A stretch of 49,745 nt of DNA, the filler included, from Jimgerdemannia flammicorona (Eukaryota): the NCBI GenBank assembly GCA_003990765.1. It is 2 parts of 2 records of this genome, joined end to end, with 100 filler letters (N's around TTAATTAATTAA, not from the genome) between each part and the next. Parts side by side here need not be neighbours in the genome. Positions count along the whole stretch, not along the records: positions 24,925 to 49,745 come from RBNJ01000921.1; 1 more part is not named here. One strand, written 5' to 3'. The translations under genes were made by a program, and so were the position numbers. Under the pieces are notes generated by a model. The model did not search any database and was not told the DNA's origin. It was given only the letters and a program-made list of their open reading frames with translations. Position 1 is the stretch's first letter; each line of letters opens with the position of its first letter. Shown in pieces: positions 12,697-48,770 of this stretch.

Positions 12697-13131
12697 CTAT
12701 ATGGTCTTGTACTGTGCGATTTGCTGCATAACTGTTTCCCAATGATATCTTCTCACCTTCTCAAAGTCAGTAGGGGTTACTCCTCTCAGGTGGTCTATCG
12801 CTGCTTCATCTTCTCGGAATAGCTTGTGGATCCTTTTGGCAATAGTGATCTGTGAGTGGGAGAGTTGACACTCGGCAATCCAGTCCTCCTTGGTCTTTGC
12901 TAGATCCTGGTTGAGCACGTGTCTAAGCTTGAAGTACTCTTGGAATTCTGCCTGATATTGATAGGCTCTAAAGTGTGAGATCCTTGAGAGATGAGTCTGC
13001 ACAATACTCTGAATATCCTCATAGAATGGCTCTATGGTCGGAGGCTTGGTGGTGTGCCATTGTCTTTCGATGGCTCTTTGAGCAGCACTAGTGATCTTGA
13101 GTGTCATTGCAGTGCTTTTGTTACTGGCCAT
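12697..13131 (-). CDS. Extra retrotransposon ORF3 (144 aa, unknown function) in env position
   Basis: Open frame between IN and PPT, with its ATG overlapping the IN end. A homologous in-frame remnant is present in copy 1 (1-141). Confidence 0.75.
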   Translation of the reverse strand: MASNKSTAMTLKITSAAQRAIERQWHTTKPPTIEPFYEDIQSIVQTHLSRISHFRAYQYQAEFQEYFKLRHVLNQDLAKTKEDWIAECQLSHSQITIAKRIHKLFREDEAAIDHLRGVTPTDFEKVRRYHWETVMQQIAQYKTI

Positions 13132-14314: not shown

Positions 14315-14321
14315 GATTGAT

Positions 14322-17300
14322 TTATTGGTTGGAGGTAGTTCGAGGTGTCCATGAGAGAGTATCTGCATTGGAATTTGTTCTTCCAGGGCAGTGCACGATG
14401 GTTACATCATAGGCTTGTAACTTCATTATCCATCTGGTATAGATTCCCTTGGGTTGTCCGGTTGTCAGTAGCCAGGTGAGAGCTGAGTAGTCCATCTGGA
14501 TGGTGAAGTGTCTTCCGGCCAGATAGTAGTGGAACTTTTCCACAGCCCAGATGACTGCAAGGCATTCCAACTTGTAGAACTCGTATTCTTTTTCAGCTCC
14601 TCGGGTTCCACGGCTAAGATATGCAATGACATACTCTTTTTTGTCTTCTTTTTGAGCTAGGACTGCTCCTAGTCCTTGTGCGCTTGCATCTGTCTGAAGG
14701 ATAAATTCTTGGGTCCAATTGGGTCGTCTGAGGATGGGTGCCTGAGTTAGTCTGACCTTGAGTTCGTCAAATGCTTTTTGTTGTCTGCCAGTCTACTAGA
14801 ACTTGGTATCCTTCTTATTGAGTTTGTAGATTGGGCCTGCAATGTTGGAGAATCCTCTAATGAATCTGCGATAGTAGGAGGCAAGTCCCATGAAGGCTTG
14901 GGCTTCTGTGACGGTAGTGGGCCTTGGGTATGCTGCTACCGCTTGTATTTTGAGGGGGTCCGTGTGTGTTCCATCTCGATTGATGATATGGCCAAGATAG
15001 AAGATCTCGATTTCCACAAACTTGCACTTCTTGGGTTTAATATAAAGGCCATGTTGTCTTAGTCTCTCCATTATCTGCTGTATGTGCTGCAGATGTTCCT
15101 CAGCTGTCTTGCTGTAGATGATTATATTATCGACATAGACCATCATCCATCTTCCCATGTCATAGCAGAAGATTTTGTTCATCATTCACTGAAAGCTTGC
15201 TGGTGCATTGCACATTCCGAATAGCATTTGTAGGTAGATGTAGGTTCCGTCTGGGGTGATGAAGGCTGACTTTTCACTTGCCACTTCTGTGAGTCCAATT
15301 TGGTGGAATCCTGAGTATAAGTCCAAGGTGCTGTAGTACTGTGCTTCGTCTCCCAGTGTTATAAGGATGTCACTGATGAGCGGCAGTGGTTGGCGATCCT
15401 TCTTAGTGACTGCATTGAGCTTTCTGTAGTCAACACAGAGCCTTGGGGCAAATTCTCCAGGTTTGCTTCCTTTTTTCAGGGCTAGTATAACTGGTGAAGA
15501 CCAGGGGCTACTGGCTTCTTTGATGATGCCAGCTTCTTCCATCTGCTTGATTTCTTCTCTGAGCCATTCTCGGTAGGCTGGCAGGACAGGTCTTGCTTTC
15601 TGATAAATTGGTTCAGTGTCTCTGGTATCTACCTCATGATAGTAGTATGGGGTCTTTCCCTTGATATCCTTGAAATCCGTGGCGAGGACATCCTCGAATT
15701 TGTGGAGTATTTTCTTGAGTTCCTTCTTGAGTGGGAATTCATCTCCAATGGTGTAGCTGTGCTTGCTCGTGTTTTCCTCCTTCTTGTGCTCGAGTTCGGT
15801 GATCTTGGTGCTGGCAAACACTCCTCTTCCTGTGGATCCAAATCCTTTCTTTCCTCTTTTCGTTTCCTCAAGATTCTTGACTTGTATAATCCTTGGCTGT
15901 ATGATTGGGAAGATCAACATCTGTACCAATCGGTCCTTCTTCTTGACTGGGAATGGAATTGTAGGATTGTGGTTCCTAGCAATGAGTAGAATTTCTCCCA
16001 TATAGTCTGAATCAATGACTCCTCCTTTGATTGTGATTTCGCTTCTAGCCAGGCTGCTTCTTGTCTTGAGAATCCCGACATGATCCTTTGGGATGGTTAT
16101 CTCCAGTCCAGTTGCGAGTAGGGTGGTTGTCTGGGGTTCCAGTACAGTTTCTTCTACTGTAGCGATGTCCATTCTGGCTGCGTTTTCTGACTTGTATTCT
16201 GGCAAGACTGCATCAGAGTGGATCTTTCAAATCTTGACCTTGATTTCTTCTTCATCATCGCTGTCCTCTAGGAGGGCTGGTGGTTTATCATTTTCCTCCT
16301 TCTCTTCTTCCCTGATCTGTTTTTCGAGAGCTTTCTGGCTTCTTTCCTGGTAGATCTTCCTGGTTCCGATAGTGCACTGGTAGCAATCATTGACATGCTC
16401 CATACAGTACATCTTGATTCTATGAGGGCAGACTCCTTGTGGGGCATAGCCTTCTGCGATCTTCTTGCACCATTCTTCTTCACTCATCCATCCAACTTTC
16501 TTCTTCTTTGGGGTGATCACCATATAAGCTTCCTCTTGCTCGCTCTCTTCTTCCTCCATATCAGGCAGGACTCCTTTGTTGACATTGATGGGAATTCGTA
16601 TCTTCTGTCCCTGGTAGGTGATTTGCATCTTCTGGGCATTGAGATCGATTACTGCCTTGGCTTTGTGAAGCCATTGATTGCCGATGAGGATATCATAGTT
16701 GGTGGCATTGGTTACGATTATATCTACTGGGATTGTTGCTCCTCCGATCTTGATGGGAACATCTCAGATCTTTCCCAGAGGTATAGCTCTTGTGCCATCG
16801 GCTGTGACGAATACTAGCTTAGTTGCTTCTTCCACATCCCAACCTAGGCGGTCTGCTGCCTTCTTACTGAGGAGACATCCTCCTGCTCCTGTATCAATGA
16901 TGGCTTCAAAGACTCGATCCTCAATTTGGCATGTTGTATAAGCAGAGGTTTTGTAATTGTCCTCACTTTCTTCTCCTGAGTCCTCTTGAACATTATTGGC
17001 CTCGGTTATCTTCCATCCTTATTCCTTGGTTGTTTCGGCGAGTCCAAACCTCATTTGCTGTCTGAATGTTGGAATTTCTGCAAGCTGACCAAAGGTTGCA
17101 TTGACCTTTTGTTGACTGAGATCCTTGAAGATATCATACTTGAAGGTCTTGGTCTTGTGAAGCTTCTTTTCTTTTTCTCCTTCACTGGCTGGAGTGGTTC
17201 CTTGGATGATATCTTGAACTGCTTGCTCCAGCTCGATATTCTGGTCCATCTCTTCAGCTTGACTTTCTGTGGTAGTTTCCATCTGCTTTTCCACTGGGTT

Positions 17301-18299
17301 CTTCTTGGGTCTTCCTGGTGGTCTCTTGTAGGGTTCTTTGCGAACATCCTTTTTGGTGGTCTGAGCAGGATAGGCCTCCCATTCTTCTTCATCAGAATCT
17401 CCGATCTCCTTGAAGGTAATTATATTGGCCTGCTCCTTGTTTCATGTGGCATTGCTTGGTTGAGCCTTGCGCTTGGTTTCGCTCATGCATTCATAGGAGT
17501 AGTGGCCTTCTTCTCTGCAAGTATAGCAGGTGTCTTTCTTCTTGTCTGAGGTGGTGGCGAACTTCTGAACAGGGCAGCAATCTCTTCCTCAGATTTCCTT
17601 TACCACATCTCCCAGGTGGGCAGTTATTTCAGCAAACCTTTTGGCAAGTTCCTCCATAGGGTCGCTGTTCTTTTGCTGCTCAGTAGCTTTTGGCTGAGGT
17701 GTGTTTCGATTGATCATTGTGGTGGGGATCACACTGGTTGCCTTGGGTGCCTCGATTCTGACTCCTGTAACTCTCTCTATTGTATGGTCTTGTGGGTGTC
17801 TGGCTATCCAGTATCGCTGAGCATAGGTGACCCTTTGTGGTAGATCCAGAATCACTGGTGATGAGCGGATGGCCATGGCTATTTCTGGATGGACTCCTTT
17901 CATGAAGGTTGCTTCAGCTACTTGATCTTGGGTAGCAGCAGCATAATCTGCAAGGATTATCTGATATCGAATTCTGGTATGGAATGTGTTTGGATCCTCA
18001 CTCATTCCTTGGCACGTTGTGTTGAGGTGATCCTTCAGGGCTTGCTTGATCTTGTCTGTGTAATATGTGTTTCGGAGCCAGGTCTTCTGTGCCATCAGTA
18101 TAGCATCGGCATCATTTCCTGCATGGGTTGCGGCTGTGAATGCTGCTCTGGCGGGACCTCGTAGGCTGAAGGGCATGAGGGCTACTTACTGTGCTGCTGT
18201 CAGAGTCCTTACGGCAGCATACTGCTTGAAATCGTCAATGAAGGTGATGATTGATTCATCTGAGGTATATCCATGGAATACTGGCGGTCTCATATCCAT
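14322..18299 (-). pseudogene. gag-protease-dUTPase-RT-RNaseH polyprotein (single frame, premature stops)
   Basis: ORF fragments starting at 18176, 17294, 16628, 16205, 15185 and 14570 share one frame. Motifs: PPVFHG gag start, CCHC knuckle, IIDTGA protease, dUTPase motifs, YVDNII (eroded YxDD), QTDAS and ADTLS RNaseH. Confidence 0.93.
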
Positions 18300-30818: not shown

Positions 30819-31481
30819 TGGCCTCCCAACTCTTTTAGGCCGCGTTGCTTTTGCTCGGCGTGAAACGCCCAGAGCCGCTTTGGCCCCACTCGCCATGTTC
30901 TGGAAGAAGCGTGTCACGGCTCCCGATCAATATTCCTATTAGGCGCACTGATTTTCGAATAGATTTTTGACTGATCTACCAAATTCAGCTGACAGATCAG
31001 ATTTTCTCTGTCAAGATGCAAACACAAAATCCTTCTATTTTCTCAAATTATATATTTTAATTTTTATAATTTTCTAAATATTTTATAATACATATTTTTG
31101 ATATTTAATATAAATGATATCCCATAGTCTATAAGATAAATGCCTGCAAATTTAAGATGCAGGCAATGTCTATAATATAATTTAAGAGATAAGATCTAAA
31201 ACTTAAATATATAATTTATAAATAAAAAATAGATATTTTATACTATATAAATACTTAAACTCTAGAAAATATAAATAATTCTTATGACAACTCGATATGT
31301 GGGCGTCACATTTCCATCAGTTCGCGCTCTACTGCATTATCAATAAAAATCACCCTTCTTTTCTGCTCGAATTCCTAGAGATTCACTACAAAGGTTATGA
31401 GCCCCGTTTTTCCATCTTAGAGTGTAGCGTATGTTAAGTAAAGAGGTGTTTTTCTATAGCCACTGAACGGGGCTCATAACC

Positions 31482-31818
31482 TTTGTAGTCCGTAAGTTTG
31501 CCGCTCTCGCGCATAGCGGCGACGACGACATTATACGCTTCGGGAAGGCCTCTTGTAAGCGCCAGGACCTTATCTTCGTCCCCAATGGAGTCCGTTTGGT
31601 TTGTAGAGAGGGAATTCACCTCGTTCGCCAGATCGTCGACGCGATTGGCGTAATCGCGGATGCTCTCCTTGGCAAACGAGGTGAATTCCCTCTCTACAAA
31701 CCAAACGGACTCCATTGGGGACGAAGATAAGGTCCTGGCGCTTACAAGAGGCCTTCCCGAGGCGTATAATGTCGTCGTCGCCGCTAAGCGCGAGGGCGGC
31801 AAACTTATGGACTACAAA
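31482..31818. repeat. Long inverted repeat (149-bp arms, 39-nt loop) made of Ty1/Copia gag (UBN2-like) sequence
   Basis: 31482-31630 pairs with 31670-31818 with ~5 mismatches. Translation ESIRDYANRVDDLANEV...DEDKVLALTRGLPEAYNVVV is Copia gag-like. Confidence 0.88.
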
Positions 31819-32595
31819 TATTAAGCGGCAAACTTACGGACTACAAATATTAAAAGATCAGTATATCTGAGTTCTAATTATCACAGATATACAAGGCCTA
31901 CTGAATTTCCATAAAATGTGCATATTTTTGGTTTTTAATCATCAAAAGGACTTTTTCCAGTTAATTTAAAATGTAACACTAACCCTCCAAAACAAATTTG
32001 AACTACAGCCTTAATGAGCCATTGTTTTCTTCTTCCGAGTCTTGTGCTCCAGCTCGTCAGGATACGGATCGCTATGAGTTTTGCGTCACTAGGGGCCAAC
32101 AATGACAATATAGACCAACAATGAAGGCTCGGTCCCTTTAGGATATACTTCCATTATAAATACTGCTACGTTCATTCTTGCTCCAACCCTTGCAGCCTAC
32201 CCGGCAAACATATATATTATCTGGGCATCAGGGGGCCTCTGAGAATGTGAAGTCCCAGGCCCAACCCTCAGGACGGATTACATCGGGTCTTGAGCCACTT
32301 AGGAGCAAGCGAAAATTTAAAGGTTTCGCGTAGATAGATATCCTTCCCCAAGTGCAAATGACAACGTCGAACAAAAAAGGTGGCTGCGCGAGTATGAATC
32401 ATCTCTGTTTTGTTTTTTAAACCTTTGGAACACCTGCAGGCTCGCCGATCTTGGCTAACCCTTAGCCAACTGATAAAAACACTTGTGGGTACTTGATTTA
32501 AAAAAGCCTCCCCCCCCTTCCAAAAAAAAAAAAAAGGTTGCCACGTTTCCGTTGGCAGCGATGGAGGTGGCAGCAGGTCTCAGTTAATCACCACC

Positions 32596-35294
32596 TTAGA
32601 TTGCTGCTTTGCGTTTCGTTTCCCTCGATGTTCGCTGCAGCGCTGCGATGCCGGGGAGGATAATATTCCGATTAATAAGTAAGCTGTGAAACAGAAACAG
32701 CAACAATACCAAAAAAAACCTCAAAACCTCAAAACTCAAGCGAACACGACCCTCACCTTCGGTACGGCCATCCCCTTCGCCGTAAACCAGTACGGTTGAA
32801 ACTCAAACATAACATCGCACCCTGGCTCCTCGCAGACGGCTCGATGTTTCTCCTTGAGCCTCTCGTTGCAGGCGTCGCAGAGCCCGTTGGCCTTGGACTT
32901 GGTCTTGGACTGAGCGGAGGCACGGTTGGTAGTGAGGGTGATAATGCGACCGCAACCCACGGCGGCGCAGTTGACCTCGCGTGGGCCTGCAGCCTCGAGT
33001 ATGCGGTGCATATCCTCAGTCGCCGTCGAGATCTCGCCTGACGGCTGGCAAGGGTGGCGCCCCAAGCCCAGATGCTTGCAGACGAAGTTGCAGCGGTGAT
33101 TCGAGAAGAAGAGGTTAATTCCTTCGAGGCCGAGGTCCGTGGAGCCGAAGCTTTAAAAAAATAGAAGAATCAAAACGAATGTACTTTCTTGAAGGAGGTT
33201 TTCAAATAACGTCAAAAGTGTGTAGTAAACGAGACGCACTCTTTAAGAGGATTCGCAGAATGAATAACCGGATCCGTCATAATATACTCAACACCCTGCA
33301 GATCAACCACAATAAGCTGATTATTCGAGGCCTCCCAAGTAAAATGTGAGTAGGCCTGCGCGGTGACCTTGAGTTCGTTGCTGTAGTTTGCGTTGTTATT
33401 GTGCTTGACATAGTTACCCTCAACGAAGGGCTCGACCGTCACATACATAATTCCGCCGCTGGGACGCCGGATCTCCAGCACCCGCACATCCAGGAAGTCA
33501 ATGGGCCTGGGAGGACGGCGCGTGTTGAACTCGTTCGCAAGCTTGTATGCAATCGATTGCGTAGACATCACCTCTAGGTAATTCTCGCGATCCGCGGGAC
33601 CTCGCTTGAAGACCTTGGCGACCAGGCGGCGCTATGCAATAAAATAGATGGAATGCGCGTTGAGATGAAGGGACACGATTCCGAATAAACAACTGAATCG
33701 ACGCTAACTCCAACAACAATGCAAAGATCGCGATAAAGATCCTTACATTATTATGTGGCTCGTACATGGGGAACGCGTATCGCTGGGTCCCTGATGCAAA
33801 CGGCTGCATACGGATGTAAATGTCCATGGTGCTTTTGAGCAGGTCCTCAAGCGGGGTGTCAAGGACCACTTGCAGCGAGTGGGCGGGGTTGCAGGACATA
33901 GACCGGGCGTTCACCAGGTCTCCCCACGTGTCGGCGCTCCCCCAGTCGATGGTCGTAATGAGCGGAACGTCGGGCAAGACGGTACTACATATAAGAATGA
34001 TGGTTGTCAACATTTCGTGTGCTTTGCGATGATGACGGCTAACGTTTGGGTAAACATTGTAGGGCGCGAGATAGAATCAGTAGAAAAAGGAATCACCTTG
34101 ATATCGATTCGGATTCGGATCGCAAGATTGTTCTTGAGACGGACGCGGTGATGGTTTCGACAACTGTTGGCAGAAACTTCGTAGTATCCCATCCAAGGTC
34201 GAGTACCTATGGAGAGCCAGTGCGACATCAAAAAGTATTATCAGATGAATGCTCGAAATTCCTATCGCACTTCCACAAGCAAAATTGACTTACCTGAAGG
34301 ACACGGAGCGCGGGCTTATTATCATACATTCTCGAAAACTCCTTAATCATCTTTTCGGTATAAGTCTTTTTAGCCTGCACGAAGTGATAGTCAATATTCA
34401 GCTCACCGAGCGCACGCAAGATTATCCCGGCGTCTAAATGCGAGCGCCCATCCGGGTCGGTCGACGGATAATCGTCTCCTGGGTCATCATTGAACTGGGA
34501 GAAATGCGACGGAGCGTCTGCGATGTGGTACAGAACCCTTGTCCTAGCCGACCAAGGGAGCTTGGCGGCCTTGGCGAGGGCGCCCAGGACATCCTCTGGC
34601 CCGTCGCCACCGCCCTTGGCCTTGGTGACGTCGAGCTTGGCCTGCAGCTCAGCGACGTTGGTGGTGAAGGGCAGCTCAGTGAAGCGATCGGAGCCATCAT
34701 CGAAGTCGCGGTAGCCGAGGAAGCCAAACCGCACCTTGTAGCCCTGGAATTTATGGGATATGTGCTGTGCCACGTCTACAACCTTGGCTGCGGCCTCGCG
34801 GATCCAAGGGGCCATGGAACCGGTGCAGTCGATCATGTACAGCACATCGATTGTTTGGAGTTCGGAGCGACGGCGCATGTTCTCCGCTTCCAAGCGTTTG
34901 AGAGCTTCCAGGGTTGCTGTGCTTGTTCTACAGGTATGAGACATCATTGTAAATATCCCATCTTATCAATGCATGTCGAAGAACAAAGAGTGGTTGCTCA
35001 CCTAGCTTCCTTCCGCAACGCGGATGCCTGCAATTTCGCATTCTCTGCCCTTGCCGCTTCAAGTGCCACCCTGGTTCTGCCCGCAGTTCGCGGCGCCGTG
35101 GAGAAGAATGTTGCGCCTGCTGCGCGCAGCGCAGCATTCTCGGCCTCAAGTGCTGAAAGCCTTTCCCTAGTCCGGGTCGAGGTTGGCGGAATAGAATTCA
35201 GGTTCAGGGCGGCGGTTCTCTCGACGAGGAGACGAGCGTTTTCGCGCTCGAGACGCTCACGTGTTCGGGTTGAGGTTGGTGGGGAGTATGCCAT
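32596..35294 (-). CDS. Repeat-VWA-alpha-kinase-Zn-ribbon protein, paralog A (7 exons, intact)
   Basis: MAYSPPTSTRTRERL; MIDAS-like DCTGSM; alpha-kinase motifs PFASGTQRYAF, VAKVF, VEPFVEGNYVKHNNN, QAYSHFTW, VVDLQGV, TDPVIHS, HRCNFVC; C-terminal CEEPGC...VPK/RCSEHR; stop at 32596-32598. Confidence 0.92.
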
Positions 35295-35744
35295 GGTTCG
35301 AATGTGTTGGGGGGGGGGGGGGAGAATGTGATGAAATAGGTAGGCCTTTATATAATTAATTGTCTGGTGCTGCGTCATTAAGCCGGTTTGGGAAAAGAGA
35401 TAGTAATTCAAGCAAACCTGAAATATTTCGACGTCAACTTTATTTTCCTCTATAGTTTTTTATTTTATTTTTTTTTGCGCCAGCAGCATTGCTCCGGCAA
35501 ACAGCCTGTGCGCTGAAAAATCTCTCTATCCCATCTATCTCGCATAACGGTTTGAAGCACAAGGCATGCCGGTTCTGTACGCTACTACGGCAGCACTTCC
35601 AGAAGGTCAACTGACGCGGAACAGTTTCAGGAAAACGGTTACACGGAATGCTAAACACGTCGTTTTGTTTGGGATACATGCTCCTAGTCTAGGTCAGTGG
35701 GTCAGATATATATAGTGTGTGATTGTGTGTGAGAATCCCTTGCC
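35295..35744. promoter_or_regulatory. 450-bp divergent intergenic region with a TATA-like box on each side
   Basis: TTATATAAA on the minus strand at ~35347-35355 and ATATATATAG on the plus strand at ~35706-35715, each 30-60 bp from an ATG. Confidence 0.6.
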
Positions 35745-38504
35745 ATGGCTTACCCTGCCACCACCACCCGCACGCGCGACCGCCTCGCCGCCCTCGAAAT
35801 CGAGAACGCTCGCCTGCTTCAGGCTAGGACCGCAATTCGGATACCGGCCGCGAGAACGGCAGCAACCTCCTCGGCGACCAGAGACAAGGTCGCGCAGCTT
35901 GAGCTTGAGAATGCTCGCCTTCGTCATTCCCGAACGGTTGTCATCCAGGCCACTGGGACGAGGACCAGAGACAGGCTCGCGGAGCTCGAGATTGCGAACG
36001 CCGTTCTGCGTGCTCGCATCCCAACCGTTTCGGGAACCAGCTCACGGACTAGAGAAGCTCTAGCGGTGGCTGAGCTAGAGAACCGAAGGTTGCGCGCAGT
36101 GGCTGTTCGTACAGTAACCCGGTAACTAATCAGCTTATCGCGCCTATGCGCGATTTCTGTGATACGGCGAGGGAATCTTATCTAATTATTCCTTCTGTGA
36201 CCATTTAGGACAAGCACTGAAACGTTGAGGGCCCTGCAGCGCTTAGAAGAAGAGAACCTACGTATACGAGGCGCTCTCCGAACGCTCGACGTCCTTTACA
36301 TGCTAGACTGCACCAACTCCATGAAACCGTGGATTCGAGCTGCTGCCGACAAGGTCAAGGATGTGGCCCAGCAGATATCCACCAAGTTCCCTAAATACAC
36401 TATCCGCTACGGCTTCCTGGGTTATCGCGACTTTGAGAACTCGATCGCCGATCGCTTCACCGAGTTGCCCTTCACCGAGCAGATCGACCAGCTCAAGCGG
36501 CATTTGGACGCCACAAATTCCATCGGGAACACGGACGACGCTGAGAACGTGGTCGGCGCCCTGGCGAAGGTGGTTCAATACCCCTGGAGGGCCAGGACAC
36601 GGGTGCTCTACCATTTCGCCGATTGCCCGTCCCATTTCACCCAATTCCACGATGCCAATATCGCTGATCATCACCCCACGAGGGATCCTGATGGCCGTAC
36701 CGCACGGGAGGCCGAAATGCTTGTGCGCGAGCTGGGTAATCTTGGCATCGACTACTATTTTGTTCAGATCGAGGAGGCGAAGACGAAAAAAATGATCGCG
36801 GAGTTCAAGAAATTCTACGACAATGAAGCGGACGACAGGAAACTACAGGCAAGATGAATTGGCGTGATTGCATTTTATATGCATCTCTGCTTTAAGGCGG
36901 CGCGATAACTGAAACCACTTAATCGCCGCTCATCGTCATACAGATTCTCAGTCTAGGCTGGAACACTGATAGGTTCCTGCCAAGTGTTGTCCAGACAATC
37001 AGTTCGTCCGTGGCGAGGACAATCAGGATGGAGCAAACACGGACTTTGGGGTTCGTGAAGATTTTGTGAATGTTCCTTTATCGAGCGCTGGTATCTTAGA
37101 ACTCTCTAAGTTTGGATAAATACTCACTCCCAAACAACGTAGGATGATTCAGAATGACGACGTCGCCATTGTTCCGCTTAATTGGGACCACGTGGAGCGG
37201 TGGGGCGAACAATTATCGATGAAGTCCTATACGTGCAACCTTCGACGATCGCTCGACAGCATCATACAAGCACCGCTAGCCGACCTTTTGACCAGCAATA
37301 TCCAAGCCTTTATCCGTTCGGACCCGTTCGCGTCCGGGGGTTTGCGCTACGCGTTACCATTGTACCAACCGAGTGATGAGGTAAGGGCTCTCAAACGACC
37401 ATCTGTGTGATTCACGACACATCCTGTACGCACAGACTGTTGAAACATCGCGCAACATTTGTAACACCTGTACCCTAGCGGAAACTCGTCGCGAAGATGT
37501 TTAAGGACGGGCCGCTCACAAAAGATCGCTATCTCGAGGTGATGGCTATCCAAGCTATCGCCACCAAACTGGTCTACGAGTTCAATCGCTACAACCCGCC
37601 CCAGACAATCGACTTCATTGATGTGCGTGTCGTCGAGATCGAACAGACCCATCCAAGCGAGGACACATACTTTACTGTGGAACCCTACATAGAAGGCGAC
37701 TATGTGAAGCATAACAATAATGCCGGTTGGTCGAATGAGCTGATGGCTACCGCGCAAGCATACTCCCACTTCACGTGGCAGAAATCCGGGAATAAGCTCA
37801 TTGTTGTTGATCTTCAAGGCGTTGCTTATATCATGACAGATCCAGTCATTCATTCTGTAAATCCGCCCCATAGGTCAGTCTCATTTATTTTACACTGTGC
37901 ATTTGGTTGAACTTTACCATTCAAATCCCTATTAATAATGTGCTCGTCATTCCACAGCTTTGGCAGCACAGACTTCGGCCGTGAAGGTGTTGACAGCTTC
38001 TTTTCCACCCACCGCTGCAATTACGTCTGCGACATGCTCAATTTGACTCGGCACCCAATGCAACCCCGCGACCCTATCAGCACAATCACCAATCAGCTTC
38101 AGCAGGCCAACGAGCAGTCGGGCCCACGCCAAGTGAATTGCAATGCCGCGGGGTGTTCGGCTCTCGTCTAAATTGGCCAGGGTGGGGTCTTAGGTGCCGC
38201 CGCGACCATGTCCGACATATATTGCAACTCCTGCAAGCGCAGGATGCGGCTGAACCAGACATTCACGTGTAACATGTCCGGGTGCAAAATCAAGTTCAGC
38301 ATCACACCCTATAGATACACAGCCCGCGGAGAAGACCCGCCGACGGTAAGTGTGTGCTTTGGTTTTTCTGGTGTTGGTTTGCGTGTGGAATCTCAACCTT
38401 TTGCCTGCTCCGAACGTCCACAGTGCTGTCCCGCACATCGGAATCCCAATGTCCCGACCCCCGGAGGGCCGGGAAGGAGCAGGAATCCAGGACGGCGTCC
38501 TTAA
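35745..38504 (+). CDS. Repeat-VWA-alpha-kinase-Zn-ribbon protein, paralog B (7 exons; in-frame TAA at 38169-38171 truncates the Zn-ribbon tail)
   Basis: MAYPATTTRTRDRL; DCTNSM; PFASGGLRYAL, VAKMF, VEPYIEGDYVKHNNN, VVDLQGV, TDPVIHS, HRCNYVC. Same six intron positions as paralog A. Confidence 0.9.
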
Positions 38505-39719
38505 TTGGTATCTCCGTCTACTTGCGCGTGATATGACACCCATCGTCATTCACCCTCTTTCTCTTTTCTCCTCGTGAAAAGATAGGAAGAACCCACTCTG
38601 AAAATTTTAAATCCAAAAGAAAGTTGAATCTTTGGAGACGGATTCAAACTTTCCTTTCCATTTGAAACTTTCAAAGTGGATCTTTCCTTTCTTTTTAATC
38701 TTTTCTCTGCGTTTTCGACAGTTGGCTCTCCGGTGTCTTTTTTCTTTCTTTCTTTCGCATATCGTATCTATAGGCTCAACGCTGGTTTCACATGTACCAT
38801 CGACCGATTTGAAATACCATTTCCATTACCAGTTTCTTTACGAACCATATAATCCATGTCATCGTCGCACCGTGGGTGTCACGTTGGTACTGAACTCATC
38901 TCGCTGAGGTTTGTGGGAGGAACTAGGTGATGTGCGCATATATATTATTGAGTTCAACGGTGTATTCTTGGTCTTCGTATTTTACGGTAACAATCAATCG
39001 TACACGCTTCTATTATATACTAAGCTTGGTGGTATATGGCAACTATAATGTGCGATACAATGAGCAGAACTTTCAGTATGCGTCCTTTTTTATTTTCCCT
39101 GATAATCATCAATAAAACCACATCACACGGCATACTTAAATGGATATTATGACGTCAGAACCGATTGTAACCATTCCAACAATTCATGTCTCCATACCGA
39201 ATAGCTTTAGGAAAACTTGCCATCTTGGCCACTTGTCAACACTCTCGACACTGGTCGCAGACCTCTCCCACATGCCTATTTACTCCACCAATCTATCCTA
39301 CCGGAATCGTATCAGACCGCCCCAAGCACAAAAGCCCTTCAAACCGGAAACTCGCGATAACATGCCAGGCTCCCCAGAACTGGGCCTCGCATCAGCGTAT
39401 TACATGGCGTCAACGATATGCTCAAATCAACTCAGAAACCTCTCCTAGCGTGCCCACAAGCGACGGCATTAACAACCCGGGGGCTTTTCCGTATTATAGT
39501 CGATATTCGTCTGCCTCCTATCCAAATGACGCATCACATCCACCGTGGCTTGAAATACTTGAAATTGATCTAGTTATTAACAAAATAGATTTTATAAGGG
39601 TTTAACTCATTATATCACAGTCATGAAATGATGTAGTTTTTGACATATGAATTAAGCAGAGGTGAGATAACACTTTAGTCAAGGTTATGGTCATAGAAAA
39701 TCATTTAATATAGATATCT

Positions 39720-39745
39720 AAAAAAAAAAAAAAAAAAAAAAAAAA

Positions 39746-39787
<42 letters not shown>
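39720..39787 (+). repeat. poly(A) tract, possible tail of a short retroposed insertion
   Basis: About 67 A at the boundary between the gene island and the TE nest. Confidence 0.5.
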
Positions 39788-39788
<1 letters not shown>

Positions 39789-39796
39789 AGGTTAAC

Positions 39797-40265
39797 ATAG
39801 CTGATCTCAATCAATAGAACAGCTTGGCTTCAAATACTTAATAGCTTAATATAAATATAGATTATAAAAAATTTAAATATAAATATTAGTAACTCTATTA
39901 ATATATCATTAAATTTAATTATCTTTAATATATTAAGTTTGTCTTTAAATAGTAAGTTCAGTATTAAATTTATTAAATTTGAAGATATATTTTATTAACT
40001 ATGTTATTAAGTCAATTGAGATTAGTACATCTAAACAAATTGAATTAAAATTAAGAGTCAAACTTTAAAATATAATAACTTAACCAAAATATATCTAAAT
40101 TTGATAATATTTATTATACTAGATTTCTCTAGATAAGGTAAATTTAATATGCTAAATTTTATCAAATTTAGATATATGTATTTTTATTAAGTTATTGAAT
40201 TTTGATTCAATTTATTCTGAGTACTAATTAAGATAAAACTATTCTATCAATTGAGATCAAGCTAT
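39797..40265. mobile_element. AT-rich MITE-like element
   Basis: ~30-bp imperfect TIRs (atagctgatctcaatcaatagaacag / ctattctatcaattgagatcaagctat), internal inverted repeats, no ORF. Confidence 0.6.
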
Positions 40266-40291
40266 TCTTTTTTAATAATAAATATATATAT

Positions 40292-42805
40292 TATGATAGT
40301 TGATCTACATAAATTAGTAATATGAATCAAGAGAATAGACATTTGATTATAGTATCTAAATCTGATTTCCAAATATAGTATAGCCTTATAAATAGTAGTT
40401 ATGTTTCACAAATATAGAAACTTTATAAATATAGAAATTCTACAGATATAGAATCTTCATAATCATAGAGATTTTACAGATATAGAGGATCTATACTTGT
40501 AGAAAATAACTCATAGAAAATATAGTTATAACTTAGCCATCTTATAGCTAGTAAACTTGTATAAATACATAATCCAGTATCTTAGAGTAAATAAACCTCA
40601 GATCAAAATAGTTTAAAGTAAAGAAAAAGTAAAGGAACTAGTAAGCCTACAGACAGATATACTTCAAACTTACTCCTCTGTACTCTGAGAACTCTACAAG
40701 AGTTAGAACAAGTTAAGTTTTTAAGATATAGAAATCTATCATACTTTCAAGGTTAGGCATTTACTACATTATAACTCGGTATCCATTGACTGATAATTTA
40801 AGATAAATCTCTCAATTTTAAGTTGAATAATAAACAACTGCTACCATCTGAATAACTATAAAAATTGATTGTTCAGATGCCAGAACATTGGCTGAGAGAG
40901 TGTGAGGTTTTGGGGGACTTTTGGGTAGAAATAGGAAATAGACTAGGTATGGGGTAGAGGCTGGCAGGTGAGGGAGACCACTGGGAAGACTTGAGATCTT
41001 GGCTAGTAGGTAGGGTGGGGAATAGCTGGCTCACTCTAGGGTGGGTGTTGGCAGTGTAGATGAGACTGGCAGAACATTGGCTTTTTGTATTTGAGGAGGG
41101 GCAGCAGATGGAGCTGCAGGAGAAGATTTCATGGTGAGAGGAGCTGTTGGGAGATCTGTTGACTGGATGATAGATGGGATGAGGTCCTCAGGGCAGGTGA
41201 TATCACAGTTTGGTGGTAAGGATCTGTGAGCAGAATGGAGGGAGAGTGAAGATTAGATTAGACAAAGTGGTCTTTCATCAAAAAGGGTAGGGGGAGGGGG
41301 AGCTCTCCTAGGGAAATTGGATAGAAGGAGAGATCACTGTATTTATATGAGATAGATGGGTATAATAAAGGAAGGAAGTCTAAGTAACTATAAAAAGAAA
41401 AAAAAAAAACTATATAAATTGAATCAAGATATCTAGACAAGATGGATATAAGACCATCAGTATTTCATAGATATACTTCAGATGAATTGATCATTACCTT
41501 TATTGATGATTTTGAGTAATATACTACTATAAGGACCTTGATAGTAATACAGCAAGTAGCCCTCATACTCTTTAGTCTCTAAGAACTAGCAAGAGTAGTA
41601 TTTATAGCTACATATAACTCATATAAGAAATGATGACAATACAGTGCTAGCAGCTGGCTCCAAGCCATTTATTATATAGATAAGATCAAACAAGTTCTGA
41701 AGGATTAGCTCAACCAACTTATCAAGGAATAAGCAAGAATCCAAACATATTCTATATCAGAATTCAATATCAGATAATTCTTGTAGATTATACTAACACT
41801 ATCTAAGATCAAGTAGCTGAGGTAACCTTTATAAAAAGAGTCTACCTAGAGATAGCCTTAGCTATTATCTACTTATCATCAATAGTTCTAGATCTACTAT
41901 AAAAGGTTACCTATGTCCAGTAATACTGGATAGCCAGATACTCACAAGACCATACAATAGAAAGAGTTACTGGAGTTAGAATTGAAGCATATAAGATAAC
42001 TAGTATGATCCCTACTACAGTGATCAATTGAAATATATCTCAGTCAAGAGCTACTGAGTAGCAGAGAAATAGCAACCCTATGGAGGAACTTACCAAGAAG
42101 TTTGCTAAAATGACAGCCCACTTAGGAGATATAGTAAAGGAAATTAAAGGAAGAGACTGCCACCCAGTTCAGAAATTCACTGCTATCTCAGATAAGAAGA
42201 GAAGTATTTGCTATACTTGTGAAAAAGAAGGCCACTACTTATATAAATATATGAGTGAAATCAAGCACAAGACCCAGCCAAGCAATGCTACTCAAAATAA
42301 GAAACAGGTCAACACTATCACCTTTGAGGAGATCAGGAAATCAGATAAAGAGAAATGAGAAGTCTATCCTATTAAGACTATCAAAAAAGATATCTACAAG
42401 CAATCCTATAAAAGACCATCAGGGAGACCCAAGAAGAACTCTATGGAAAAGCAGATGAAGACTGCTACAGAAAGTTAAGGTAAAGAAATAGATAAAGATA
42501 TGGAGCTAGAATAGGCTGTCTAAGATATTATTTGAGGAATCACTCTAGTCAGTAAAGGAGAAAAGAAGAAGAAGCTTTGCAAAATTAAGATCTTCAAGTA
42601 TGATATCTTCAAGAACCTTAGCTAACAAAAGGTCAATATAATCTTTGGCCAGTTAATAGAAATATATACATTCAGACAGCAAATGAGATATAGACTTACT
42701 GAGACAACCAAAGAGCAAAATTGGAAGATAACTAAAGCCAATAATATTCAAGAAGACTTAGAAAAAGAGAGTAAAGATAATTATAAGATCTCTGCTTATA
42801 CAACT
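40292..42805 (+). mobile_element. Gypsy copy 3: 5' LTR + gag remnant, heavily C>T/G>A eroded
   Basis: LTR 40292-40773 matches the copy 1 LTR. Eroded PBS; gag fragment MEELTKKFAKMTAHLGD...CYTCEKEGHY. Cut off by the Copia LTR at 42806. Confidence 0.9.
40861..41407. mobile_element. ~550-bp poly(A)-tailed insertion in Gypsy copy 3 leader
   Basis: Absent from copies 1 and 2. A-tail at ~41390-41407 and aactata duplication at 40854-40860 and 41408-41414. Confidence 0.6.
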
Positions 42806-43371
42806 TATTGGAAAGAGAGACACTTTATTGAAGTTATATATGTAGGTTGTATATTTCTCTATATTACTGATGAATGATATAAGTCTGATAGAATGATATA
42901 AGGTCATATACTGATATATTGAGTTGTTATCTCAATACTTCTGCTCAATGAGATATATAACTAAAAAAAAAAAAAATACAAACTAGAATAGAAGCAAACT
43001 AGAGTAAACTAAATATGACCAATAGAATACTATCTAGATAACCACAGAAGGTCAAAATTTCCTACTTATAAGTATGAAAATAGGTAAATAATATAGTAAA
43101 AGGCTGGTAAGAAAATTTCATAAGTTGAAAAGTATTCCAAAATATACCCAAAAATATCCATAGATGAAGAATATAAAAAATATAATATATGTAATCCACT
43201 TGTAGATATCAAATATATATATAATATGTAATATGATAAGAGAGACTTTTTGCAGTCTGAAAAATGTCCTATGATCAAGCAAATACTGATATGTATAAGA
43301 CCTATTCCTTTACAACATAGCTTGAACTTTGGCTTTGGAAGGGCTTTCATAAATGAATTGGTGATCATATA

Positions 43372-44970
43372 CAGTGACAGCCAAAACTGTAACAATGTTT
43401 AGTTATTTTTTATATATAATTATATTATAGCTTCAATATAAATACAATAAAATCCAAATTTTTATCATTAATAATATAGTATCTCAGCTTTTGAATGGTA
43501 TATTTTTATTTTATTTGGATAAATATAGACATTAATATAACCATTTTAAGTTATATTATCATTGTTATAGTTTTGATCCTCTTGGCCATCCAAACATCTT
43601 ATTTATTTTTATTTAGTATTTAACATATCTACCTTTGGCTTTATATACTACTGCAATGCGCCTGGGCATACTTTCAATTAATTTGATACAAATATCTTTA
43701 GGAATGTTATTCCATATATGCTGTATGCGCTCCCATAATTCCAGCATTCCTTCAGATAGTTCATCATATGCATTCAACTGTTTTTTAAGTTCGCACCATA
43801 AATGTTTGATAGGGTTGAAGTCTGGTGATTGTACTGGCCAGTCTAATATATGGATAGAGTTGTTTTTGAACCATTTGCATACCATTTTGGACATGTGTTT
43901 GGAATCATTATTCTGTTGGAAGGTGATCTTTTTTTGATTAAGTTTGTAATACTTGATCGTTCGAAGCAATTCATCACCAAAGATACTAGTATATAATTCG
44001 GCATTCATTCAGCCTTCGATTTGGCATATGTATCTGATGCCCTTGTACATCATACATCCCTAAAGCATTAACAATCTACTACTGAATTTTAGTATTCTAG
44101 TCATCTGGTTTAGTTGGAGCTCCCCACCACCACCCGATTTATACTATATCCATTTGTGTCCATTGAAGCCCAAATAGTTAATCTTCATTTCATTGGAAAA
44201 CACAATGGTTTTCCAGTCGGCAACTGTCCAATGCTTGTATTTCATGGCAAATTCATAGCATACCTTTATATGGCGAGGTAGCAAAGGTGGTTTCTTTTGC
44301 TTCATGTATGCTTTGAGGCCAGTCTTTCAGAGCATTCATTTTACCATGCTAAGGCTCACCTTTTTGCCACTTTCTTGAAGGACTTTTATAACCCTGGTGG
44401 CATTATCTGCTTTGCCAATTGTAACTTAGTGGGTGATTCATGCTTTATTCCAGGCTGAAAACATAGCCAGATGACTACCTTTCAATGAAGGAATATTGTT
44501 ACAATATGCTATTTTTACACAGTTTACTGTCATTGTACTCACATTGGTTTCTTTGGCAATCTTGCATATGAATAAACTGGATTGTAGTAAGTAGATAATG
44601 CGGTTATGAATATCGACAGAAAGCTTTTTCATTGCTTGAAAATGATGGCAAAACACCGTAGAGTGATAAAGAATATCTGAAACAACACTATAGTAAAAGT
44701 GGATAATTATAGCCCAACTTAATGGTGCATGGTGAACCCAAACAGATTTGGATGGCCAAGAGGGTCAAAACTGTAACAATGGTAATATAACTTAAAATAG
44801 TTATATTAATGTCTATATTTATCCAAATAAAATAAAAAATATACCATTCAAAAGCTGAGATACTATATTATTAATGGTAAAAATTTGGATTTTATTGTAT
44901 TTATATTGAAGCTATAATATAATTATATATAAAAAATAACTAAACATTGTTACAGTTTTGGCTGTCACTA
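43372..44970 (-). mobile_element. Tc1-family DNA transposon (1.6 kb, ~222-bp TIRs, TA duplication)
   Basis: TA|CAGTGACAGCC...GGCTGTCACTA|TA, with TIRs at 43372-43593 and 44747-44970. Confidence 0.95.
43613..44632 (-). pseudogene. Tc1 DD34E-type transposase, degenerate
   Basis: KKPPLL, WKTIVFSNEMK, FQQNNDSKH, WPVQSPDFNPIKHLW, SMPRRI. Catalytic D/D/E eroded to N/N/K by G>A changes; stops present. Confidence 0.92.
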
Positions 44971-46754
44971 TATTCTGTAGGGATGTATTCTAGATGTATA
45001 GTACTAGTTTCTATATATTTATGTATAAAATAATACTATATATCAATATGTTTCATTCTACTATAGTGTATCAGATTCTTGGTAAGTATAATTATAGATT
45101 GGTTATCTTGGTATAGCATAGTACTTTCTTATATAAAGCCAAGCTCTTTTAATAGTTCACAGAGCCATATGGCTTCTTTTATTGCCAATGATAAAGCCTG
45201 ATATTTAGCTTGTATAGATGATATTGTAATAGAGAATTACTTATATGTATATTTGCCACAAGATAATGGATCCTTTGTTGTCAATATAGAAGAGATATCC
45301 AGTTATAGATTGACAGTTATCTAAGTCTTTAGTCCAATTGATATCATATGTACTAGATAGCTGGATACTATTACTCTTGCCATTACTTTCACTTAATCCA
45401 ATATTACTACTGTCTAATATGAGTATATAGTATACTATATTCTTTAGGTATCTGAATATTCTTTTAATAGTACTCTAATATAAATTATCATAGCAGGAGG
45501 AGTACTGTGCCACCTTATTCACAATATATAATATGTCAGATATTGTTATAAGTATTAGATATATGAGAGAGCCAACTGCTTGCTGATAGGGAATATCTTT
45601 AGTATTGTTCTTGGTGAGTACATTGTCATCATTCTTGGGAGTAGTATCAGGCTTCCTTAACTTTATAGAAGTATTTATAGAAGTGTCGACAGATTTATAT
45701 TCACCTATATTAAAGTGTTTGAGAATAGTTTTGGTATATGTTTCTTACAAGAGGTATATAGTACATATGTTTCTGTCATATATGATAGATATCCCTAAAA
45801 GAAAGGATGTATTGCTCATATCTATCATCTTGAACTCTCAGCATAGGATTTTCTTTATTCTGTTAAACCTGTTCTTACTTGCAATGATAATGATATCATC
45901 TATCTATATACCAATGAATACTATGCTCTCATCATCATAATGCTAGATATATATGTAATTATCTACTTTGCAATATATGAATCTATAATCAAGAGATATT
46001 TATCAATTTTTTTGTTCCATAACTATGCTACTTATTTAATACCATATAGTCTTTTGTATAATTTATATACAAGCTTGCTATTTAGGCTATCATATAGTTT
46101 ATATCCTTGCAGTTGATGGACATATAGTTTGGTGTTTATATTACCATTCAGAAATGCCATCTTGATATCTATTTGATGGATTTCAAGATCATATACTGCA
46201 CTAATCACAAGGAGTATTCTAAGTGAAGTAAGCTTGAATACTGATAAAAATGTCTTATTGTAATCTATGCTATAATTTTGTAAATAATCCTTAACAATAA
46301 AATAAGCTTTATACCACTCTATGCTTTTGTCACTTTTGTACTTAATTCTATAGATCTACTTAGATCTGATTGCTTGACAGTTTGGCAAAAGAGATACTAG
46401 ATTTCATATGCCATTTTCAATAAGTAAATTATATTCCTCATCTATTATGCATTGCTATTTCTTGTTATCAGTATATTGTATAGTCTCATTATATATATTT
46501 GGTTTACTGAAAGATATTGTGATATATATGTATTTGTATACTTTAGTATAGCTCATATGGTCTTGATATTATTACTATCTAGAGCTTACTGGCATATTCT
46601 AATAATTTTCTAAATCAGAATGAGTTTCTCAGTAAATGTTGGAGTACTTTTGCTTACTTCTTATAAAGAATTCCTCATTGCTAGGCTCACCATCATCTTT
46701 ATCCTTGATCTCTATTATTCTTAGCTTAGCCATTTCTGGCTTAGGCTTAAATAT

Positions 46755-48770
46755 ACATATATATTTCTTATAGAAGTAGCTACTAATTAATCTTTTGAAT
46801 TCTTTTCTGATTTCTTGAATATAGATGACTTTTTTGTTAAGTATAATGAATGTGTTAAATACTTCTTAGATAGTTTTATTATTGAGTCTATCAAATTTCT
46901 CTTAGCTAATATAGGTCTCAGTCTACTCAATGATGATTTTATTGACTTCTTTGGTTTGGTTCTGGAGAGTAGCCAGAGTGAAAGTATTCTTTAGTTATCA
47001 CTAATAATATTGGTAATATTGACTAAGTTATTTATATTTATAGTGAATTTTTTAAGAGAAGTTTACTTATAAGTGAGAGTAATTTTTATTACTATTAAAT
47101 TATAATAAAACTATATACTAATAGAATTAATATATTGTAGATAATCAAAATTAACTATCAGCTCTAATTTCTGAGTTCTTGTAAGAAAGTACTGAGTTTT
47201 AATTACTTGTTTTTTTTTTTTTTTTTTTTTTTTTAATAGGATCAAGTCTCCACAGATTTTTTATTAGAAAGAAACCTAGACTATATAGGCCAAAACTCTC
47301 TCTTACTCTCTCCTGAGTACTACTCCCCTATTGTTCTTAGGCTATAGAGAGAAATAGCAATTATACTATCTCAACTATATAAGGATAGTATTATATATCT
47401 CTATTCTAATAATATATAGACCAGACTTATCTATTTACTAGAGCTGGATTATTAGATCAATACTGTGAGAGCATACCTATATATCAGATCCAGTAATACT
47501 AGAACTGAACTATATAATCTCTCTAATTAATTAATAAGAAGTAGAATAGATTTATGATAAGTGAGTAAAGAACTTATATAAGACTCTCTCAAAAAAACTG
47601 ATATATAGACTAAGGTCTGAAAAGACTCTAATTCTACTTCTCAAGTCTACAGGTCTCAATTATATTACTATATCAGTTCTTAGTTTCAGTTAAGTATATA
47701 CTATCAAATGAGAAAGATCTCACTCTCTAAGCTTGTAAGTCTTGATTACATTATCATATCAGCTCTTAGTTCTAGTTGGATATATTCAGAATACCAATCA
47801 CTATACTACTTTACTATCTACTAGCTAATCAAAAGGCTCTACTAAGATAATATCTACTCTAACTCTGATGACTGTCTTTAGTCTGGTATCTGACTAGTTC
47901 ATCATTATCATTTTCTCTTCTATCTATAATAGCTATCTCCTCTTCCAATCTGATACTATTTGAAAAATAGTTATCTATACCAGAACTATACTTACTAGGA
48001 AGCTTATTAAAGCTCATAGAGCTCTACTATAAATACTAATAACCTATATATAATCTATACTAATACTTGATGCTCAAGATTGGCTAACTCTCTACATAGC
48101 TTATAATTACTGTAATGATATCTTATTAATAATAGCAAAAGAAAAAAGGTGACATATCAAAATGAGTATACTCCAAATATATATAACTAGAGATATATAT
48201 TAAAAACTGTGAAAAAGTAAAGAAAATACTAATCTGATACTGATAAAGGGGCAACTTATCACTATTACCTCTCTCTCACTGCCCTACAATAGATACAGTA
48301 AACTAATCTGAGATAGAAGAAGTATAAGTTATAGAAAAGAGACTTAGAAGATTATCTACCAAAATCTTGTAACTAATATAATAGCAGAGAAAGAGATATT
48401 TCAATTATCTATTATAGCAGTATAGTTCAAGTATATATCACTTTCAGATTCTTATAGAAGTACCATACTTGTATCCTAAGTTAATTAGGCTCAGAATTAT
48501 TAATAAGTTGGGTCTGAGAGTTCTGTGATATGTAAGAATACTACTTTTTTCTTATATTTAGAGAAAGTAGAGCTAAGGTTATAATATACTCAATATAGAG
48601 GATATTTATACAGATTTGAGCTATAACTAAATATAATATGCTGAATATATTTATATATAGTTATACTATATTCAATATCTATAACTGCTAGTTGAAAATT
48701 CTATAGAAATTTCTATAAGAATTTCCATCAGAATTTCTGTTAAAAATTTCCATAACTTGTAGATATATAA
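46755..48770 (-). repeat. Second copy of the eroded element at 5890-7150, split by a LINE-like insertion
   Basis: Reverse-complement homology on both sides of 47190-48400. Confidence 0.6.
47190..48400 (-). mobile_element. 5'-truncated non-LTR (LINE-like) remnant
   Basis: poly(T) at 47190-47233 is the tail on the minus strand. It interrupts a repeat that is contiguous at ~6200 and has a degenerate ~11-bp target duplication. Confidence 0.55.

Follow-up and report, generated by a model that had tools for sequence, protein, structure and literature searches.

The stretch of DNA analysed here (the window) comprises 49,745 nucleotides, filler included, of the genome of Jimgerdemannia flammicorona (assembly GCA_003990765.1), a root-associated Endogonales fungus of the Mucoromycota. 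Its second part, positions 24,925 to 49,745 (RBNJ01000921.1), carries two paralogous genes, A and B, each encoding N-terminal helical repeats, a VWA domain, an alpha-kinase domain and a C-terminal tail with cysteine and histidine ligands. The genes lie head to head and are transcribed apart. Gene A, on the minus strand, starts with an ATG at 35294-35292 and stops at 32580-32582, and gene B, on the plus strand, starts with an ATG at 35745 and has its final stop codon at 38502-38504. The two start codons are separated by exactly 450 bp (35295..35744), which is presumed to be a bidirectional promoter. A first-pass annotation of the same sequence had given the pair the bounds 32596..38504; the end of B was correctly placed, whereas A ends at 32580 rather than at 32596, because its last intron occupies 32643-32756.

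We built the models of A and B from open reading frames, splice signals and the alignment of the two paralogs, and then checked them against public RNA: runs X1 and X2 and two low-depth root metatranscriptomes, X3 and X4. X1 and X2 carried only a guessed RNA label; their contigs skip every predicted intron, and the two runs are therefore cDNA-derived. Spliced contigs from X1 and X2 support all 12 junctions of the pair. The six junctions of A were each found in both runs, and those of B in X1 (6/6) and in X2 (five, plus the sixth with one changed letter). Fragments of the A and B transcripts are also present in the two root metatranscriptomes. Contig depth differs between A and B, but contig depths do not rank genes.

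Both genes have seven exons. Those of A lie at 35294-35002, 34927-34294, 34206-34097, 33984-33747, 33631-33240, 33150-32757 and 32642-32580 (stop included) on the minus strand, and those of B at 35745-36121, 36209-36848, 36944-37050, 37143-37380, 37479-37873, 37958-38345 and 38424-38504 on the plus strand. The six introns of each gene interrupt aligned residues in identical phases (2,0,2,0,2,0), and differ between the genes in length and sequence. The proteins share 50% amino-acid identity over 730 blastp columns, distributed as 58% in the repeats, 57% in the VWA domain, 37% in the linker, 64% in the kinase and 34% in the tail; nucleotide identity is about 66%, counted only in the two alignable blocks. 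Two diverged paralogs with six shared intron positions, transcribed divergently from a 450-bp spacer, are thus what the first-pass annotation had described, and the RNA bears this out.

The spacer itself holds little untranscribed sequence. A contig of B in X1 spans 35483-36059 and so begins inside the spacer, while a contig of A reaches 35301, with adapter sequence beyond, which leaves less than about 180 bp untranscribed. The start contexts of A and B form an 11-nt inverted repeat, besides which no notable repeat was found in 35295-35744. Within B, we also observed in X1 a joint at 36156-36262 that skips 105 nt with CT..AC ends, corresponding to a minus-strand intron (depth 32.5, side 30). 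Its source could be an antisense RNA, or gene A could have a further exon upstream.

Gene A (32580..35294, minus strand) encodes 707 amino acids, with all six junctions of the model seen in X1 and X2. The model differs from a public protein of the same length (P0001, strain tag BC936) solely at residue 344 (I344T). The BC938 protein P0170 has Ile at this residue, as in the window, and the window sequence is therefore of the BC938 type. The exon for the VWA domain is 100% identical to a public J. flammicorona protein. We built an AlphaFold2 model of A with 60 relatives, which reached a mean predicted local distance difference test score (pLDDT) of 85.3. In this model and in the alignment, residues 1-122 form a repeat region of four helical units (34855..35294 including intron 1, minus strand). 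It is followed by the VWA domain at residues 123-312 (34198..34854 including intron 2, minus strand), which matches Pfam VWA_4 with an E-value of 1.7e-07 and 31.4 bits, above the cut-off of 27 bits. The metal site is made up of D131-C-T133-G-S135, D206 and D235. D131, T133, S135 and D206 are nearly invariant in an alignment of 60 sequences (A1) and invariant in one of 10 sequences (A2), and D235 is invariant in both. The pLDDT of the domain is above 90, and Foldseek also matches it to integrin beta chains. By analogy with VWA domains generally, this D-x-T-x-S/D/D site would probably hold a partner protein through a metal-bridged acidic residue.

The alpha-kinase domain of A spans residues 409-580 (33078..33797 including introns 4 and 5, minus strand) and matches Pfam Alpha_kinase (PF02816) with an E-value of 6.5e-50 and 170.2 bits (cut-off 21.3). 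Residue roles were assigned from MHCK-A, for which the excerpted text of PMC4876393 gives Arg592, Lys645, Asp756 and Gln758 of the D-x-Q-G motif and Asp766 of T-D-P. The corresponding residues in A are R414, the P-loop arginine, K431, D535-x-Q537-G and T544-D545-P, together with E492. H521, H574, C576 and C580 make up the zinc site of the C-lobe (a His, then His-x-Cys-x3-Cys), the role of which follows the part of PMC2827801 that deals with it. These core catalytic columns are invariant or nearly so among the 60 relatives. The N/D-loop residue is Asp, the loop name allowing either residue; in the relatives it is Asn in 54 and Asp in 6.

The best sequence matches in the PDB were eEF2K (7shq; 1.6e-33) and MHCK-A (3lkm; 8e-31), with fold E-values of about 1e-19 to 1e-20, and the top Foldseek matches were eEF2K, an Entamoeba alpha-kinase, MHCK-A, TRPM7 and ALPK1. 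A can be aligned with eEF2K and MHCK-A at the P-loop arginine, the lysine, D-x-Q-G, T-D-P, the N/D-loop and the H...HxCxxxC zinc site. In contrast, A and B lack a SEL1 region or WD40 domain, show no calmodulin-binding region (no search aimed at such a site was made), have valine at the equivalent of MHCK-A Asp663 (taken up below), and belong to a family across which the phosphate-pocket residues are not conserved. A loss of the phosphothreonine pocket in B (MHCK-A Lys684/Arg734/Thr736) was considered and dropped, since these columns vary across the whole family. Vertebrate ALPK1 has the alpha-kinase fold in common with A (sequence E-value 2.5e-16; Foldseek ranks 42 and 46). However, it is more distant from A than eEF2K or MHCK-A, and its ADP-heptose-binding N-terminal domain is absent from A and B. 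ALPK1 had been raised as a hint of an immune function, but a common kinase family says nothing in favour of such a role.

Beyond the kinase, A continues for 122 residues (586-707; 32580..33062 including intron 6, minus strand) that include eight Cys/His ligands. C617/C622 and C647/C650 would form one site, and C662/C667 and C689/H692 the other. The AlphaFold2 model places the leading pair of either site within a hairpin and its partner pair where a helix begins, a predicted treble-clef layout. A Pfam search of the tail gave no match even at E<=5, and P0020, the public protein for the C-terminal half of B, was likewise without a zf_Tbcl match at E<=5. We nevertheless tentatively liken the tail to zf_Tbcl (PF13451, a probable treble clef), because the second zinc site of A, with its hairpin-plus-helix layout, aligns with the stretch of protein P0021 that matches this family; the tail of P0021 does so twice (1.5e-06, 28.5 bits, cut-off 24). 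A differs from zf_Tbcl in lacking a Pfam match, in its C-x4-C knuckle and in its last pair, C-x2-H. The two-zinc tail may serve as a further docking module. A tail beyond the kinase is common to many relatives of A and B, and is wholly missing in many others, for example the Glomeromycotina proteins P0007 and P0011.

Gene B (35745..38504, plus strand) has 741 codons if codon 657 is read through, and encodes 656 amino acids as it stands in the window. Its repeats cover residues 1-150 (35745..36281 including intron 1), with five units beginning at residues 6, 41, 70, 98 and 127; their domain E-values of 1.2e-10 to 5.3e-08 come from a profile built from these same repeats. The VWA domain (36282..36848), 57% identical to that of A, carries the sequence LDCTNSM at residues 157-163. 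Its exon scores 16.4 bits against VWA_4, under the cut-off of 27, yet the D-x-T-x-S motif is present, and N-terminal repeats followed by a VWA domain with this motif were thus rightly reported for both genes. The alpha-kinase runs from PFASGGLRYA to HRCNYVC (residues 436-610; 37324..38030 including introns 4 and 5) and is 64% identical to that of A. Its exons match PF02816 separately, with E-values of 5.5e-38 and 9.4e-07 (131.4 and 29.5 bits), and P0020 matches with 172.9 bits. The core motifs are the same as in A, with the zinc-site sequence HRCNYVC at 604-610.

Public annotation splits B into two proteins, P0022/P0171 for the N-terminal half and P0020 for the C-terminal half. RNA contigs join both halves, and B is therefore one gene. 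The split falls at intron 2 (36849..36943, plus strand), a GC-AG intron of 95 nt with the ends GCAAGATG...TCATACAG, which is supported by the joint 36843>36939 in both X1 and X2. The joint slides by 5 nt, and no GT is possible within the slide. The P0022 model reads through this intron and ends in '...KLQAR'. The single-gene model given here corrects the public one.

The tail of B (38136..38504 including intron 6, plus strand) begins with C647/C652, and 11 codons past this first pair an in-frame TAA at codon 657 (38169..38171) cuts off the still conserved CxxC, Cx4C and CxxH ligand pairs, C675/C678, C690/C695 and C717/H720. As encoded in the window, B keeps its repeats, VWA domain and kinase, and 1/4 of the ligand pairs of the tail. 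The two C-terminal Cys/His ribbons that the first-pass annotation had described for each protein accordingly stand for A, with its eight ligands, while in B one pair out of four is left. At codon 657 the T>G change was seen in none of a depth of 70.8 in X1 and in 13.1 of 13.1 in X2, where the codon is GAA (Glu). The public BC936 protein P0020 also has Glu at this position. The J. flammicorona paralog D has Asp aligned with codon 657, and the stop is therefore the derived state; since the sequence past the stop stays in frame and its Cys/His residues are kept, the nonsense mutation is recent. A second difference in the tail concerns codon 716 (38424, the first of the last exon), which is TGC (Cys) in the window but reads CGC (Arg) in X2; the BC936 protein likewise has Arg, as does A at the corresponding residue.

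We considered whether B is on its way to becoming a pseudogene, in which case the pair would have no present joint meaning and A and paralog D would carry the function. The premature TAA is present in both the genome and the RNA of this strain, and the closest paralog of B, paralog C, has a long branch and has lost part of its kinase domain by a deletion between NNN and the zinc-site motif SHF. Across X2, X3 and X4, 9 sites vary in A (6 synonymous, 3 non-synonymous) and 13 in B (6 synonymous and 7 non-synonymous, the stop/Glu site included), so that the non-synonymous to synonymous ratio of B, at 7:6, exceeds the 3:6 of A. However, the stop is absent from another strain and from X2, it removes only the tail, a part that many relatives lack (P0007 and P0011 among them), all core kinase and VWA residues of B are kept, and B is correctly spliced at its six introns. 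Furthermore, a second B-like contig set in X1 (36071-37326) has 13 differing sites, 11 of them synonymous and 2 non-synonymous. This set is about 4% different over 36785-37012, contains the same intron 2, and could stem from another allele, from another type of nucleus or from a copy made very recently. On balance we think pseudogenisation unlikely. Judged by its kept catalytic residues, the 11:2 ratio of the second X1 allele and the kept frame past the stop, B looks functional apart from the stop, and the locus documents a natural truncation allele in which the zinc tail alone is removed.

Each repeat unit in the N-terminal region is predicted to form a helix, with T-[ST]-T-R-T-R-[ED]-R-L as the sequence of its first turn. 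In A these caps are TSTRTRERL at residues 7 and 38, TAGRTRVAL at 70 and TSTATLEAL at 99, and the helices start at residues 9, 40, 71 and 101 of the AlphaFold2 model. A contains two exact copies of the 9-mer TSTRTRERL, and P0041 of the ascomycete Cladorrhinum, otherwise about 36% identical, contains four; another relative, P0122, has six close variants, and in all three proteins the caps lie N-terminal of the VWA domain. The strict motif was found in 8 of the 177 collected proteins. Among 92 relatives from outside the Endogonales, the density of the looser pattern T-[RK]-x-[RK] upstream of the VWA domain is 4.5 times that downstream.

In T-R-T-R-E-R, each threonine is followed by basic residues at +1 and +3. 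The excerpt of PMC3286862 describes a strong preference of eEF2K for Thr with basic residues at these two positions, and a standard alpha-kinase test peptide from the myosin tail with a K-T-K-T-K-E core. Alpha-kinases owe their name to the phosphorylation of residues in helices, and VwkA autophosphorylates, as stated in the relevant section of PMC2827801. The caps thus fit the substrate preference of alpha-kinases, and the repeats are therefore probably autophosphorylation arrays. As read from sequence, the kinase's probable target would be its own conserved Thr/Arg helix caps, and phosphorylation at multiple sites may switch its activity or assembly. An extended version of this idea treats the caps as built-in substrate sites, four to seven per array, from Endogonales to Sordariales, and has A and B, with their shared promoter, phosphorylating each other as a two-kinase switch that the strain-specific loss of the B zinc tail has rewired; taken as a whole we judge this to be rather unlikely. 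Neither alpha-kinases of Mucoromycota nor the cap motif turned up in our literature search.

By their sequences, A and B are members of the known VwkA-type family of VWA plus alpha-kinase proteins, which is found across eukaryotes. A search of 1.84 billion cluster representatives returned 10142 relatives at E<=0.001 and 453 at E<=1e-30, many of which span VWA, kinase and tail. Named members come from Vitrella, Saprolegnia, Ochromonadaceae, Symbiodinium ('vwkA'), Phytophthora, Pythium, Neurospora crassa, Cladorrhinum and a soft coral ('vwkA-like'). In A the VWA domain (123-312) precedes the kinase (409-580) in one polypeptide, and the order is the same in B, whose halves are joined by RNA contigs. 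A and B are new members, while the family itself is known and widespread. We know of no VWA alpha-kinase studied so far other than VwkA of Dictyostelium, nor of any known substrates of VwkA.

The first-pass annotation had mentioned such fusions in VwkA and some fungi, which agrees with the relatives named vwkA, with the N. crassa homolog and with the literature: the excerpted Phytophthora kinome paper (PMC3019232) describes VWA alpha-kinases in fungi and oomycetes, and VwkA appears orthologous to two N. crassa proteins in the part of the Dictyostelium kinome paper that covers it (PMC1420674). The proposal that the pair is an undescribed fungal module is not supported, the architecture being pan-eukaryotic and not a fungal invention. 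One N. crassa 'kinase-like protein' (P0205) has the architecture of A and B and a tail that ends in C-x2-H like that of A, but is only 28% identical and has at most one degenerate cap. Cladorrhinum P0041 also has this architecture, with the identical TSTRTRERL cap in four copies at 36% identity.

Compared by description only, Dictyostelium discoideum VwkA resembles A and B in having its VWA domain upstream of the alpha-kinase, but its kinase lies at the extreme C-terminus (both from the excerpt of PMC2827801), whereas A and B add a two-zinc tail and the Thr/Arg-capped helix array. We weighed the possibility that A and B do the job of VwkA, as Ca2+/calmodulin-activated kinases that influence the level of myosin II and act on membranes of the vacuole or Golgi. 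The common domain order and the vwkA or vwkA-like names of relatives would fit, as would the autophosphorylation and Ca2+/calmodulin activation reported for VwkA in the passages concerned (PMC2827801, PMC1420674). The additional zinc tail of about 120 residues in A argues against it. To our knowledge this fungus also has no contractile vacuole, and we consider a VwkA job very unlikely.

J. flammicorona has four paralogs of this family: A, B, C (P0003/P0172) and D (P0004/P0173). In both public assemblies of the species, A and the N-terminal half of B lie on one contig with consecutive locus tags (in one assembly their accessions also follow directly on each other, in the other they are two apart), and the pairing is thus not peculiar to the assembly analysed here. 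C and D are on contigs other than that of the pair and other than each other's. In a tree, A groups with an Endogone protein with a support of 88 in the Shimodaira-Hasegawa-like approximate likelihood ratio test (SH-aLRT), and B groups with C and D (99). A and B thus separated long ago, and dispersed copies arose from the B line afterwards. The Endogone contig that carries the family member is only 3806 bp long, too short to show a partner.

We looked for further head-to-head pairs in metagenomes, using the 10-sequence alignment A2. A relative is encoded in 239 of the 372 stretches that the scan matched, and we retained the best 80 loci, 17 of which have at least about 1.8 kb of sequence upstream of the VWA domain. 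None of the 17 has a head-to-head VWA-alpha-kinase partner. Many of the metagenome loci are redundant or short, and this is therefore only weak evidence against a general pairing rule. At one locus (L016), two genes with this type of VWA domain are divergent at a distance of about 180 bp (1-1551 on the minus strand and 1721-2458 on the plus strand). It was rejected as a second pair because the minus-strand protein, P0178 (550 amino acids), has a VWA domain but no kinase. The N-terminal domain of P0178 is helical, about 300 residues long and without a family match, and its relatives P0182-P0184 carry a PARP catalytic domain. Four other contigs (L027, L028, L029 and L037) carry an alpha-kinase-like open reading frame of 867 amino acids and a separate VWA open reading frame of 489 amino acids, divergent and 4.8 kb apart (in L027, 4759-7362 on the minus strand and 9452-10921 on the plus strand). 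With their dense long open reading frames, these contigs look prokaryotic.

These data bear on the proposal that A and B work as a pair, co-regulated and forming a hetero-oligomer or phosphorylating each other's repeats, perhaps as sensor and executor in a non-self or stress response. Both public strains retain the divergent order with its spacer of about 450 bp, transcripts of A and B are present in X1, X2 and the root metatranscriptomes, and the common repeat motif means that each could be a substrate of the other. B is also the more variable gene (the nonsense allele, the Cys/Arg change and the roughly 4% different second X1 allele), and the locus is flanked by transposable-element remains. 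However, the sole domains that Pfam reports at E<=5 for A and P0020 are VWA and alpha-kinase, apart from stray sub-threshold zinc-finger matches, with no NLR, HET, HeLo, TIR-type or death domain. Paralogs C and D sit apart from the pair and from each other, the partner at L016 is kinase-less and none of the 17 informative metagenome loci is paired, and the family is old and occurs in many eukaryote groups as single genes. The variation is mostly synonymous, with alleles well under 5% apart, unlike the deep, mostly non-synonymous allele divergence of allorecognition genes (6:3 synonymous to non-synonymous sites in A, 6:7 in B and 11:2 in the second B allele). This sample is small, comprising four runs, and the metatranscriptome contigs of X3 and X4 have a depth of 2 to 7, such that some differences may be errors or stem from relatives. 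A prediction of a complex between residues 1-122 of A and the product of exon 1 of B gave a score of 0.00; run without controls, it speaks neither for nor against binding. We consider joint action of the two genes as a pair decidedly unlikely. The sensor/executor, allorecognition and heterodimer roles put forward in the first-pass annotation find no support in these domains or this variation, and the locus opens no new class of fungal immune module.

Instead, we regard it as probable that A and B are two of four J. flammicorona paralogs and arose from an old inverted tandem duplication, each a self-contained signalling kinase and not half of a two-part device. Both copies would have kept the six introns and come to share the 450-bp promoter region. 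In each protein the alpha-kinase domain, with its core residues and zinc site conserved by sequence and fold, would provide catalysis, the VWA domain would hold a partner, the treble-clef tail would offer further docking, and the Thr caps with Arg at +1 and +3 would be the kinase's own phosphorylation sites. In this strain, the recent nonsense mutation would then have deprived B of most of its tail while leaving repeats, VWA domain and kinase intact. A and B may still be functionally linked, through the shared promoter or through cross-phosphorylation.

Several observations weigh against this interpretation. The equivalent of MHCK-A Asp663, a regulatory residue of the alpha-C helix that is Glu in TRPM7, is Val446 in A and also Val in B; among the 60 relatives it is Asp in 32, Glu in 8 and Val in 5. 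According to the excerpt of PMC4876393, the D663A mutant of MHCK-A keeps its ATPase activity but has about 1% of its kinase activity left, and the protein kinase activity of A and B could therefore be weak. The earlier statement that both genes have all catalytic motifs thus holds for the core residues but not for this position. An Asp here is not defining for the alpha-kinase family, though it matters for the activity of MHCK-A. The tree was obtained by a quick search, was rooted at the midpoint and carries SH-aLRT values as its only support, and the node joining A and the Endogone protein reaches only 88; orthologs of B in other Endogonales may also have been missed, given the broken public models of B. 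The head-to-head order has been kept since before the split of B, C and D, so the shared promoter may matter, which is compatible with a joint function. Finally, at least two copies of T-[RK]-x-[RK] precede the VWA domain in only 10 of the 92 relatives from outside the Endogonales, and the strict repeat motif, being absent in most relatives, cannot be essential to the family.

The pair lies within an island of about 14 kb of ordinary base composition, which also contains a CDP-alcohol phosphatidyltransferase gene and an epimerase-like gene. Degraded transposable elements are found on both sides of the island, in keeping with the nest of such elements noted earlier, and we found no link between these remains and the A/B pair. 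At 2238-3236 and 12697-18185 lie degraded Ty3/gypsy elements in which a dUTPase adjoins the reverse transcriptase (E-values 1.4e-23 and 1.9e-25). A 154-nt inverted repeat (31477-31630 and 31670-31823) is 95% complementary with 39 nt between its arms, both of which encode a Copia-type gag fragment (Retrotran_gag_2, 3.1e-06). The sequence from 39000 to 49745 is AT-rich, with 23-37% G+C, and holds the remains of a DDE_3 transposase (43613-44008) and of a Copia reverse transcriptase (46032-46355), as well as a long poly-A run at about 39710-39790.

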